From NCBI GenBank assembly GCA_034723415.1, contig JAYEOX010000035.1:1-19820 (forward strand): a DNA stretch of 19,820 nucleotides. The letters are read 5' to 3'. The DNA comes from Fidelibacterota bacterium (lineage in GTDB: Bacteria; Fidelibacterota; Fidelibacteria; Fidelibacterales; Fidelibacteraceae). Position numbers: made by a program. How positions within the stretch are numbered: position 1 is the stretch's first letter; the number at the start of each line of letters is the position of its first letter. Positions 3,001-6,000 of the stretch are shown here, piece by piece.

Positions 3001-6000
3001 ATTAAGGTCTGCAGATAATGGAATTGTTAAAATAATGTTAGAGGATAAAACATAAAAGACATATAATAGAATGCTTTGCATAACTAAACCAAATAATAAA
3101 AATGTTTAGAAGTTTAGTGGTTTAGTGGTTTAGAAGGTTAGTGGTTTAGTAGTTTAGAAGGTTAGAAATGATCATAATTAACAATAAATTATAAAATGAA
3201 AGTGTATTTGTTATGTTAATCAAAGGTTTCTAATAAAATATAAGAGGGATAAAACAAAAACTTAAATGAACTTATAATCCTTATATGGTTCAAAAATAAT
3301 GAAAATATTACCATTCAAATACGAAATAAATAAAAATAAAACATTCATAAATGAAAAGATCATTGATATTTCACCGTATTCTTGTATTGGAATTATTGGT
3401 AAAATCGGCAGTGGGAAAAGTACATTGATAAAATTATTTGTAGATTATGAATTGCAAAATGTAGGTGCTTATGATAATTATAATTTTTCTGCATACCTAT
3501 CACAAGATCTAACTCGTTTATTTGTTGGCAATACACTTGAAACGATAATAAATCTATATGAGAATAAGAGTCATGAAATTGGAAAACATTTTGATAAAGA
3601 ATTATTTTTAAAATATATTGATAAATTAGAATTAAAAATAGATGATAAGTATAATAGACGATTAATTGATTTTTCTGTGGGAGAGGCGCAGCGAATTGCG
3701 ATTGCGTTAACTTCCGCAACGGTTTCGAAAATAGTTGTTTTTGATGAACCGACAACTGCACTAAACAATCATTATTTAAATATTTTTTATTCTATAGTTG
3801 ATGAAATTAAAAAGAGATCAAAAGTATTTATAATCTCGCATAATTTTTTAGATATTATAAAAACCAGTGAATATATTTTATTTATTGATGAGTTACAGAT
3901 AAAAGATGACTTTTTTATTGAACAAATTATTGCAAAAGACAAAATAATGAGTTATTTTTCGTTCTATGAAAAATATAAAATGAAAATGAAAGGAACTGAA
4001 AAAAGTGGTAAAAAAAATAACAAAACAGAGCATTAAAAAAAGAAGAGACATAATAAAAGGGAAATTAGATCCCAAAAAAGTTGATTCGCACATATTTTTT
4101 ACTTTGGCAAATATTATCAGTTTGATCAGAGCATTTCTGACATTACCGATTGTCTATTATTTTTATCAAGACAATATAAAAGTGGCAGTAATATTACTGA
4201 GTATAGCAGTAATAACTGATTGGTTAGATGGTTATGCTGCCAGACACGCTGAATCTGTAACAACTTACGGAAAAGCGTTGGATCCGTTGGCTGATAAATT
4301 AGTAGGAATGGGTGTTTTGGCGATTATGGTAGTTAAAATGGATTTCCCAATTTGGTTTATTGGAACTTTGGCAGTTAGAGATTTTTCGATAATTATTTTA
4401 GCAATGATCTTACATAATTCAAGGGGAATTGTTAAAGGAGCGAATATCTTAGGAAAAATATTCCTATTTGTAAGTACAGTTATGGGATTCGCTTGGATCT
4501 ATAATTATGTTAAACCATTTCCATATCCATATCACATTTATTTACTTTTTACAGCAACCGGTATGATGTTAATTAGTTGGATATATTATTTTGTTGAATT
4601 GATTAACTTGATAAGAAAATTACCTTATCAGCCGGTAATTGAGCGAGAAAAAATAGATAAAAAAGATAAAGGAATAGAGAATAAATTTTATTCCGGATTG
4701 AAAAAAACAAGAGATAAATTTAAGAATGGTTTGTTTTCACTCTTTGGAGACGGTTTAAAAATTGACAATAAATTTTTAGATGAAATTGAAGCATTTTTGT
4801 ATCAATCCGATATCGGAGCGAATATTACAGAAAAGTTGTTAGATGATATAAAAACAGCATCAAAAAAAGATAAAATAAATGATTTTAAAGATATTAAAAC
4901 AATCTTTTATGATAAATTTAGCGAATTATTTAAAGAAGATGATATTAAAGTAAATATTGAAAAGAACAAACCTTTTGTAATTCTCGTAACCGGTGTAAAT
5001 GGTTCCGGCAAGACGACTTCAATTGGAAAGTTAGCGAATTATTATTCACAAAAAGGGAAGAAGGTATTGATAGTTGCAGGTGATACATATAGAGCTGCAG
5101 CCGTTGAACAATTAGATGAATGGGCAAAAAGATCAAAAGTTGATATTATAAAAAATTTGGAAGCCAATAATCCTTCAGGAATTATTTTTGATGGAATAAG
5201 TGCCGGTATTTCAAGGAAATCAGATGTTATTATTGTTGATACTGCAGGGCGATTACATAATAAAAAACATCTTATGGAAGAATTGATAAAGATTGAACGA
5301 GTGATAAAAAAGGTAATTCCTGATGCTCCACACGAGTCGTTGCTTGTAATTGATGGAACGATTGGACAAAATAGTTTAATTCAAGCAAAAGAGTTTATGA
5401 ACAGTATCCCAATAACCGGATTAATTATGACGAAATTAGATGGTACCGCTAAGGGAGGAATTTTAATAGCAATTAAAGATGAATTAAATATTCCGGTAAA
5501 ATTTATTGGGCTTGGTGAAAAGATTGAAGATCTGCTTCCATTTTCTTCCGAATATTATATTGAATCGCTGTTTGGAAAATAATAACCACTAAATACACAA
5601 AGATGGCACAACGAACACAAAGAATAATTATTAATGTAGAAAGTGGATAAAAAAATGTAACTTGGAGATCTTTGTAAAAATTTAATGAATGTTGTGATAA
5701 AAGAATTCAAAATATGAGAAAAATAAATATAATTAATTTAGGGTGTTCAAAAAATTTAGTTGATAGTGAAATTGTCAAAGGCGGATTGATAGACAACGAT
5801 TTTCAATATGTGAATGATATAGAAAAAGCTGAAATAGTAATTGTTAATACTTGTGGATTTATACTTTCGGCAAGAGAAGAATCAATCGATACGATTTTGG
5901 AAATTGTTAAAATGAAACAGGAAAATAAACTGAAAAAAGTAATTGTAATGGGTTGTTTGTCAGATAGGTTTGAACAGGAATTGAGTAAGGAAATTCCGGA

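Follow-up and report, generated by a model that had tools for sequence, protein, structure and literature searches.

FtsY is fused to, or encoded next to, a PgsA-like CDP-alcohol phosphatidyltransferase in Fidelibacterota

Introduction

Bacterial FtsY, including that of E. coli, is a peripheral membrane protein. Lipid-binding helices keep it in place, with the help of an acidic A domain in the E. coli protein. Its ability to find the membrane and become activated there is usually attributed to these helices and to contacts with SecYEG; to our knowledge, no dedicated membrane partner of a bacterial FtsY has been described. Membrane enzymes of the CDP-alcohol phosphatidyltransferase fold are found naturally joined to soluble domains in IPCT-DIPPS and AF2299, in both of which the soluble domain precedes the membrane domain and serves the pathway of the transferase itself.

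Putative integral-membrane SRP receptors have been reported (Bibi et al., 2001, as cited in an excerpt of PMC2780400). In this class, N-terminal transmembrane segments precede a complete NG domain. In E. coli, an engineered chimera that places the FtsY NG domain on an unrelated membrane polypeptide is functional in vivo (Zelazny et al., 1997, as cited in an excerpt of PMC2780400). The eukaryotic FtsY homologue SR-alpha is anchored by SR-beta, a distinct integral membrane protein (excerpts of PMC2064314 and PMC2780400). SR-beta is a GTPase with one transmembrane helix and is unrelated to CDP-alcohol phosphatidyltransferases.

The Fidelibacterota gene described here resembles each of these systems in part. 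It shares the NG fold, the GTPase motifs, and a preceding amphipathic helix with bacterial FtsY (TIGR00064; 2QY9, 6CQP, 1VMA, 6CY5), but here a covalent link attaches FtsY to an integral membrane enzyme with six helices. As in the putative integral-membrane receptors, transmembrane helices, here six by prediction, precede a complete NG domain. The anchors of those receptors are reportedly simple hydrophobic segments, and that of the engineered chimera an unrelated transporter fragment; in contrast, the anchor found here is an enzyme that is conserved, has its active site intact, and neighbors FtsY in the operon across the phylum. With IPCT-DIPPS and AF2299 (4MND, 4O6M) the protein has in common the natural fusion of the same membrane fold to a cytoplasmic domain, which in this case follows the membrane domain and is part of the protein-targeting machinery. 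Finally, the membrane half shares six helices, the catalytic motif, and equivalents of Lys83, Arg110, Lys135, and Tyr181 with S. aureus PgsA (7DRJ/7DRK; PMC8640168), but carries Ala and Phe in place of Arg118 and Lys137 and coexists with a separate true PgsA.

Results

One reading frame encodes transferase and FtsY

The window, by which we mean the whole 19,820-nt stretch of DNA analyzed, comes from a marine Fidelibacterota genome. In it, the transferase and the sole FtsY of the genome form a single 525-aa ORF with a GTG start and a TAA stop (Table 1). Pfam places CDP-OH_P_transf at aa 32-183 (3e-28; 99.6 bits against a gathering cut-off of 22), SRP54_N at aa 241-304 (3e-11), and SRP54 at aa 323-523 (3.9e-75). 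The NCBIfam FtsY model TIGR00064 scores 343.2 bits over aa 252-523, above its equivalog cut-off of 260.7. These searches reproduce the domain calls and the catalytic motif of the survey's finding and, with both domains above their cut-offs in one frame, bear out its claim of a natural fusion between the sole FtsY and an apparently intact CDP-alcohol phosphatidyltransferase.

Table 1. Features of the fused gene and its neighbors, with positions in the window
Feature	Position	Strand	Basis or remark
GT9 heptosyltransferase-like gene	2..931	+	upstream end of conserved block
waaA, Kdo transferase	928..2358	+	upstream end of conserved block
Divergent ECF-type-like ABC ATPase gene 1	2342..3055	+	conserved block, directly upstream
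Divergent ECF-type-like ABC ATPase gene 2	3299..4036	+	32-nt overlap with fusion start; conserved block
Whole fused gene, CDP-alcohol phosphatidyltransferase paralogue and FtsY	4005..5582	+	ORF, Pfam, NCBIfam
Basic N-terminal segment, predicted cytoplasmic, aa 1-33 (11 Lys/Arg; short helix aa 7-20)	4005..4103	+	AlphaFold model
Six TM helices of transferase	4104..4619	+	AlphaFold models, fold match, Pfam PF01066
Catalytic motif D72-x2-D75-G76-x2-A79-R80-x8-G89-x3-D93-x3-D97	4218..4295	+	sequence; invariant alignment columns
Flexible Lys/Glu-rich linker, aa 206-224 (about 15-20 residues)	4620..4676	+	pLDDT < 50 at aa 206-220
Amphipathic helix opening FtsY, aa 225-245, with G-L-x-K-T	4677..4739	+	alignment, model
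FtsY N domain, SRP54_N helical bundle, aa 241-304	4725..4916	+	Pfam, fold search
FtsY GTPase domain, aa 323-523	4971..5573	+	Pfam, NCBIfam, alignment
rimO, S12 methylthiotransferase	5714..7012	+	TIGR01125, 480 bits

The sequence comes from a draft assembly in 182 contigs, where a misassembly or gene-calling error could have joined two genes. Such an artefact is extremely improbable, given that the same continuous frame is present in 5/5 genomes of the genus and in 14/14 fetched loci of a second fusion lineage, and that protein clusters with the fusion stem from NCBI, ENA, JGI, and Logan assemblies. Independent public sources hold five clusters of the genus type; for the second type, both Pfam domains are present in 40 of 43 matches. 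A search with the full-length fused alignment is no gauge of distribution: ordinary FtsY dominated its 8000 candidates, and the second lineage was not among them. An ESM Atlas look-up returned FtsY clusters only, and their score of 0.83 falls short of a meaningful match. Public records label these fused proteins simply 'FtsY', and the enzyme half has thus been missed in annotation; a literature search for a fusion of CDP-alcohol phosphatidyltransferase with FtsY found nothing relevant among the papers covered.

A predicted six-helix membrane domain leads into a disordered linker

The model of the N-terminal domain (pLDDT 89.1) has six long transmembrane helices (aa 34-54, 58-82, 87-112, 116-138, 144-169, and 176-205), and, as in the PF01066 fold, helices 2 and 3 flank the active site. 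The count of five helices given previously is therefore corrected to six, and it is the sixth helix that brings FtsY to the cytoplasm. In fold, the domain most closely resembles S. aureus PgsA (7DRJ/7DRK; TM-score 0.76-0.79 on target), followed by PIPS, PSS, DIPPS, and AF2299. Both the N-terminus and the linker are rich in Lys and Arg (11 each), the outer loops of the transferase are almost devoid of charge, and both ends of the domain are predicted to be cytoplasmic. The linker sequence shows no conservation from one fusion lineage to the other. Since this segment is disordered and lineage-specific, the data do not point to a fixed interface between enzyme and receptor.

The C-terminal half is the only FtsY of the genome

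In Foldseek searches the C-terminal part matches FtsY structures with TM-scores of 0.82-0.91 on target. The GTPase residues G330-N332-G333-G335-K336-T337-T338, D360-T361-R363, D412-T413-A414-G415-R416, K477-L478-D479, and G502-G504-E505 are invariant. The amphipathic helix at the start of this half corresponds to the N-terminal segment of the unfused FtsY of relatives, and it may be equivalent to the helix that targets E. coli FtsY to the membrane. Unfused FtsY proteins of relatives (285-340 aa) have no acidic A domain, so the enzyme replaces none, contrary to the earlier suggestion that it stands in place of one.

Two SRP54-family genes are present in the genome: the fused ORF and Ffh (446-aa frame on contig C25, M domain found), which, like the SRP RNA, is encoded elsewhere. 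The genus has no other FtsY, so the fused protein would have to carry the receptor function. A soluble FtsY translated from an internal start was also considered; the only in-frame candidates are TTG codons (aa 199, 202, 232, and 243), whose use is unsupported.

The transferase belongs to a PgsA-like family distinct from PgsA

The complete catalytic motif is present in 90/90 family members, fused (19/19) and unfused (71/71) alike, and N36, R42, P48, R125, G150, K151, S191, and Y195 are invariant beyond it. In the tree, the fused genus clade has no elongated branches. This conservation would fit transferase activity of the fused enzyme. It also makes it very unlikely that the N-terminal domain is a dead enzyme retained purely as a six-helix anchor, an idea favored by the lack of a nameable substrate and by the loss of two PgsA head-group ligands: the eight motif residues, the eight further positions, and the ordinary branch lengths all speak against it.

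The genome has four CDP-OH_P_transf genes, the fused ORF included, in agreement with the survey's description of a fourth paralogue. One of the other three (contig C136) exceeds the pgsA cut-off (121.2 > 109.1), one (contig C75) exceeds the pssA cut-off (122.7 > 107), and one (contig C17) lies above the cut-off of no model. PgsA is the best NCBIfam model for the enzyme half, and S. aureus PgsA its best sequence match (23% identity), but the score against the PgsA model TIGR00560 is 78.8 bits, below the equivalog cut-off of 109.1; 28 of 30 sampled relatives likewise fall below it. The tree unites the ftsY-linked enzymes in a single clade (support 99), with the true PgsA of the phylum outside it.

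In S. aureus PgsA, the 3'-phosphate of the head group, glycerol-3-phosphate, is held by Lys83, Arg110, Arg118, Lys137, and Tyr181 (PMC8640168). Three of these five ligands are retained in the fused enzyme (Lys98, Arg125, and Tyr195), whereas Arg118 and Lys137 are replaced by Ala133 and Phe153; the latter two positions vary across the enzyme family, whose 90 members all lack these two ligands, and are Arg and Lys in the phylum's true PgsA. Together, the score below the cut-off, the separate clade, and Ala133/Phe153 suggest that the product may not be phosphatidylglycerol phosphate. The earlier account of the enzyme and its product is not supported as it stands. On sequence grounds, this is an uncharacterized PgsA-like enzyme family distinct from the housekeeping PgsA, and its substrate is worth finding. 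Cardiolipin synthase is not supported as an identity: the ClsA model NF053678 (CDP-alcohol-type cardiolipin synthase) gives 58.5 bits against a cut-off of 240, and a two-domain PLD-type protein on contig C17 is a possible cardiolipin synthase. The description of the sole cultured member of the phylum lists fatty acids, without polar lipids (PMC11652737). The window gives no sign of a link to isoprenoid or archaeal-type lipid genes, as it contains no UbiA, ferredoxin, or reductase gene, and a search of Villanueva et al. (2021; PMC7852524) likewise gave no match.

These data bear on the proposal that a fused PGP synthase, or a synthase of another anionic lipid, makes FtsY-activating lipid right beside FtsY, so that synthesis and targeting are mechanistically coupled. 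E. coli FtsY is bound and stimulated by anionic phospholipids (de Leeuw et al., 2000, as given in an excerpt of PMC2780400), and the proposal would fit the nearest solved structure and best NCBIfam model, both PgsA, the three retained phosphate ligands, an amphipathic helix kept in FtsY despite an existing anchor, and the phylum-wide conservation of the gene pair described below. We nevertheless regard it as distinctly unlikely. The enzyme scores below the pgsA cut-off while a true PgsA is encoded elsewhere, Ala133 and Phe153 stand at positions that vary in this family and are Arg and Lys in the phylum's true PgsA, and three families retain the enzyme without a detected FtsY. Moreover, since lipids diffuse in the membrane, local supply by one tethered enzyme would offer no obvious advantage.

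Fusion and adjacency across the phylum

In 85/85 informative Fidelibacterota loci the enzyme gene is either fused to ftsY (19) or located directly upstream on the same strand (66). The 90 loci collected comprise these, one cut by a contig end, and four from genomes without FtsY; 60 of the loci were hand-picked from a table of frame lengths, a non-random choice, and about 110 sample genomes lie outside the inspected set. Frame lengths in relatives agree with the earlier claim: all five genomes of the genus have frames of 529-544 aa, the remaining genera of the family 190-260 aa, and families f9, f14, and f20 about 476-513 aa. The genes are indeed separate in sister genera, and there they are always adjacent.

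The gaps in the 66 adjacent pairs are small (median 10 nt; 50 at ≤30 nt; 21 overlapping), and in 11 of these pairs one in-frame stop alone separates the genes. From this arrangement, the enzyme gene and ftsY are probably translationally coupled. Coupled translation is commoner among partner proteins. Adjacency is kept over ~30 families, whereas further upstream waaA-ABC ATPases alternate with tatC-polyprenyl synthase; rimO is the usual downstream neighbor of ftsY in the phylum, with a match in 68 of 85 ftsY-holding loci. In a control set from other phyla, a member of the enzyme family lies within 2.5 kb of ftsY in 0/80 loci.

In the tree, the fused forms fall into two separated clades, indicating at least two origins of the fusion, and at least four changes of state are required. 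Unfused genera are nested inside the second fused clade. This pattern suggests that fusion and fission are both tolerated, like a nearly neutral change.

The two halves could be functionally independent, with a nearly neutral stop-loss fusion within a shared old operon and an enzyme that is just a convenient anchor. Fusion would be easy across tiny gaps and single in-frame stops, and it occurred at least twice, with apparent fissions within the second clade; the linker is disordered and unconserved, and the enzyme is kept where FtsY is not found. In addition, E. coli FtsY NG is content with any membrane anchor, as far as the excerpt of PMC2780400 that cites Zelazny (1997) goes. Yet a shared operon by itself sits poorly with an adjacency that outlasts the turnover of upstream genes across ~30 families and is missing from 80/80 control loci of other phyla, and overlapping or near-touching genes suggest coupled translation. 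We therefore consider functional independence somewhat unlikely.

Discussion

We favor, as more probable than not, a model in which the fused gene encodes a bifunctional SRP receptor that is permanently integrated into the membrane. A six-helix transferase with intact catalytic residues would form the membrane half, with both ends in the cytoplasm. Its sixth helix would continue through the flexible linker into a complete FtsY consisting of the amphipathic helix, the N domain, and the GTPase, and FtsY would thereby be tethered to the membrane on its cytoplasmic side, where it could meet SRP-ribosome complexes and the translocon. The fusion would be the covalent form of a phylum-wide link between the enzyme and ftsY, arising when the gene pair was joined, at least twice, by loss of the intervening stop codon. 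The enzyme would then serve as a membrane partner or anchor of FtsY in Fidelibacterota, and the gene linkage may mirror joint action at the membrane.

The best-supported reading is that the fused receptor extends the known integral-membrane forms of FtsY. If the protein functions as its sequence predicts, it would prove, in a natural setting, that permanent integration into the membrane is compatible with SRP-receptor function. By keeping ftsY joined to one phospholipid-synthesis enzyme, the phylum also offers a natural, testable case linking lipid synthesis to membrane-protein insertion.

A broader possibility is that the SRP receptor of Fidelibacterota is in general a two-part integral-membrane machine, in which an active phospholipid head-group synthase, either encoded by the neighboring gene or fused, provides the membrane subunit. 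The unfused pairs could act in the manner of SR-alpha and SR-beta. We hold this generalization to be improbable; if true, it would provide a bacterial counterpart of SR-alpha/SR-beta and tie membrane-protein insertion to the synthesis of one particular lipid on site.

The enzyme has a role of its own without FtsY, as it is kept in genomes in which neither FtsY nor Ffh is detected. In three Fidelibacterota families, Ffh, FtsY, and SRP RNA all escaped detection, and the orthologous enzyme with its motif is retained. The apparent total loss of SRP in these families would, if confirmed, be noteworthy in its own right.

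An SRP receptor joined to a membrane enzyme

On the best-supported reading, the fused protein would be a bifunctional, permanently integral SRP receptor, whose activity and topology we infer from sequence and models. An active PgsA-like enzyme would keep the whole of FtsY at the cytoplasmic membrane surface via a flexible tether, and the fusion would be the covalent form of a phylum-wide gene pair that is probably translationally coupled. FtsY forms with predicted transmembrane segments had reportedly been noted already by Bibi and co-workers in 2001. Membrane-integral FtsY is already known; what would be new is the enzyme as anchor. 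Neither a fusion nor a linkage of FtsY with a CDP-alcohol phosphatidyltransferase was found described in the full-text literature, a corpus whose reach excludes most subscription journals. E. coli FtsY NG remains functional if an unrelated, foreign polypeptide anchors it in the membrane (Zelazny et al. 1997, as relayed in a passage of PMC2780400).

The gene is a single open frame with an AGGA-like stretch ~10 nt 5' of its start codon. Three Pfam domains and an NCBIfam FtsY assignment of aa 252-523 (343.2 bits, cut-off 260.7) bear out the survey's finding that FtsY is fused here to a CDP-alcohol phosphatidyltransferase. The genome has only one other SRP54-family gene, a 446-aa frame encoding Ffh, and both the Ffh M domain and SRP RNA were detected; the fused gene is thus the sole FtsY of an otherwise complete SRP system. 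Four CDP-alcohol phosphatidyltransferase genes were counted, one above the pgsA cut-off, one above that of pssA, one fitting no model and the fused domain, which is indeed a fourth paralogue, as had been proposed. The unassigned paralogue, of 302 aa (L006), lies on contig C17 of the same genome, ~18 kb from a 428-aa frame that encodes two PLD-type domains (L037, L038), a possible cardiolipin synthase. The fused domain is also a poor fit to the ClsA model (58.5 bits against a cut-off of 240).

Features of the fused gene, its product and other loci of the genome
Feature	Position	Strand	Remark
Fused gene	4005..5582	+	525 codons, GTG start, TAA stop
CDP-OH_P_transf	aa 32-183		Pfam 3e-28
SRP54_N	aa 241-304		Pfam 3e-11
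SRP54	aa 323-523		Pfam 3.9e-75
Short helix	aa 7-20		both AlphaFold models
Long hydrophobic helices 1 to 6	aa 34-54, 58-82, 87-112, 116-138, 144-169, 176-205		both AlphaFold models
Disordered stretch	aa 206-220
Helix into FtsY N domain	aa 219-242		holds G-L-x-K-T
Conserved block	2..7012		also in loci L012-L098
DUF1015 protein, unassigned 152-aa ORF, sulfotransferase, TPR protein	within 7014..19715	-	ordinary neighbours
purF, guaB, guaA, tilS, hpt, ftsH	within 7014..19715	+	ordinary neighbours, after the minus-strand genes
Frame with two PLD-type domains	C17:695-1705
302-aa paralogue	C17:19757-20092

Anatomy and topology

Two AlphaFold models, one for the full-length protein (alignment of 19 rows, pLDDT 76.6) and one for the isolated N domain (30 rows, pLDDT 89.1), agree on six long hydrophobic helices after a short one; the five helices counted in the survey had overlooked the last. 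Lysine and arginine number 11 in the N-terminal segment and 11 in the segment after helix 6, with at most one in the three short loops on the opposite side. This distribution is consistent with a predicted topology that has both ends of the membrane domain in the cytoplasm, which fits what FtsY requires. The best fold match of the N-domain model is S. aureus PgsA (7DRJ/7DRK; TM-score on target 0.76-0.79, rmsd 2.2-2.9), other enzymes of the CDP-alcohol phosphatidyltransferase family ranking behind it; the C part matches FtsY structures with TM-scores of 0.82-0.91. After the disordered stretch, a helix that runs into the FtsY N domain carries G-L-x-K-T, the stretch that opens the unfused FtsY of relatives.

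Identity of the enzyme

The full motif D-x2-D-G-x2-[AS]-R-x8-G-x3-D-x3-D is kept in 90/90 family members, and N36, R42, P48, R125, G150, K151, S191 and Y195 are invariant outside it; together these positions make a catalytically dead enzyme unlikely. By its sequence, the enzyme is distinct from the housekeeping PgsA: with the pgsA model it reaches 78.8 bits, below the cut-off of 109.1, under which 28 of 30 relatives sampled fall too, and a family profile gives members 163-245 bits against 74-86 bits for the phylum's PgsA.

As described in the structure paper PMC8640168, the 3'-phosphate of the head group is liganded in S. aureus PgsA by Lys83, Arg110, Arg118, Lys137 and Tyr181. Alignment to 7DRJ and with the phylum's PgsA places Lys98, Arg125 and Tyr195 of the window protein at three of these positions and Ala133 and Phe153 at those of Arg118 and Lys137, columns that vary across the enzyme family and retain Arg and Lys in the true PgsA of the phylum. 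This makes an acceptor other than glycerol-3-phosphate, or a different way of binding it, probable. The survey's stronger proposal, that the enzyme may make the anionic lipid that activates FtsY right beside it, is a possible role that the missing ligands weaken.

Among the nearest library relatives of the enzyme domain, ten carry two tandem CDP-OH_P_transf domains in 258-390 aa (P0010, P0011, P0014, P0017, P0050, P0069, P0102, P0120, P0127, P0147); of P0084 and P0066, one bears a fused transglutaminase-like domain and the other a weak Vps62-like region.

Linkage across the phylum

Searched in six frames, aa 1-230 found a match in 199/201 genomes of the phylum, and relatives carry the names Candidatus Marinimicrobia / Fidelibacterota. 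Ninety loci were examined, the 30 best matches and a non-random set of 60 chosen for coverage of genera and families; ~110 genomes lie outside them. Enzyme and FtsY share one frame in 19 loci, and ftsY follows immediately downstream on the same strand in 66; one locus is truncated where its contig ends (ftsY of that genome opens another contig) and four come from genomes in which no FtsY was found. The two are thus fused or adjacent in 85/85 informative loci. The 66 adjacent pairs have a median gap of 10 nt (≤30 nt in 50) and overlap in 21.

Upstream genes vary by lineage. Most loci have waaA and then either two ABC ATPase genes or one gene with two ABC domains, and eight have tatC and a polyprenyl synthase upstream of the pair; rimO lies 3' of ftsY in 68/85. 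The constant part of the neighbourhood is the enzyme-ftsY junction. No family member lay within 2.5 kb of ftsY in any of 80 control loci from other phyla, many of them Bacteroidota.

The conserved block reads GT9 heptosyltransferase, waaA, two ECF-type-like ABC ATPase genes, enzyme, ftsY and rimO. In many families one double-ABC gene of ~440 aa unites the two ATPases, and in L069, L073, L077, L080, L087, L094, L095 and L097 the polyprenyl synthase, usually after tatC, replaces waaA and the ATPases. Next to the ATPases of the block, neither a transmembrane nor an EcfT-like partner gene was observed; the six-helix enzyme occupies the place where their membrane partner might be expected.

Origins of the fusion

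A maximum-likelihood tree of the enzyme domain groups the 90 ftsY-linked proteins in a single clade (support 99), to the exclusion of six true PgsA of the phylum. Within it, the window's genus contributes five fused proteins, which cluster together (support 97) inside a set of unfused relatives from their own family and order. The remaining 14 fused proteins belong to a clade far from this one (families f9, f14 and f20), where unfused genera are also found. Well-supported branches force at least two origins of the fusion, with a minimum of four state changes, and the two lineages have linkers of unrelated sequence. Sixteen split pairs out of 66 share a reading frame and 11 of these are split by a single stop codon, so that one stop loss would be enough for fusion. 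These eleven loci (L031, L054, L057, L067, L070, L072, L075, L080, L084, L088, L089) are one substitution from fusion, their stops being TGA in five, TAA in four and TAG in two.

Independent public assemblies also hold fused proteins, in five clusters of the genus type and, for the second type, with both Pfam domains in 40/43 matches. An assembly artefact joining two genes is excluded because so many independent assemblies contain the fused frame. Source names, where given, are only 'FtsY' or KEGG's standing FtsY name.

The view opposite to local lipid synthesis, a neutral fusion inside an old operon, draws on a fusion that is easy, recurrent and seemingly reversible and on the persistence of the enzyme without FtsY. 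Against it stands the adjacency itself, conserved over ~30 families whose flanking genes differ and absent from the control phyla.

Families without SRP hits

PF00448 has no match in 13/13 genomes of family f11, G071 included; these measure 0.8-1.1 Mb, are 92-99% complete and in some cases closed. In two of the four genomes of f18 PF00448 has none (G055) or a 23-bit scrap only (G145), and in 6/6 genomes of f25 (including G134 and G195) it has only matches of 1e-30 to 1e-32; that of G134 is FlhF, between flhA and a MinD/FlhG-like gene. In G134, G071, G145 and G195, nothing exceeds the cut-off of the FtsY model TIGR00064, and neither the Ffh M domain nor SRP RNA (RF00169) was found (0/4 each), the window's genome being positive for both in the same searches. 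SecY was detected in 5/5 genomes searched. Judged from these searches, the whole SRP system looks to have been lost in f25, f11 and part of f18. If this is true, and no artefact of search or stored sequence, whole families of Fidelibacterota live without SRP.

All genomes without SRP hits that were searched contain the enzyme family, of the ftsY-linked type and with its motif intact. The enzyme still follows waaA and the ABC ATPases and is followed by uvrB or other genes. Loci from these genomes are L064, L065, L068, L082 and L103, and two of the genomes are closed.
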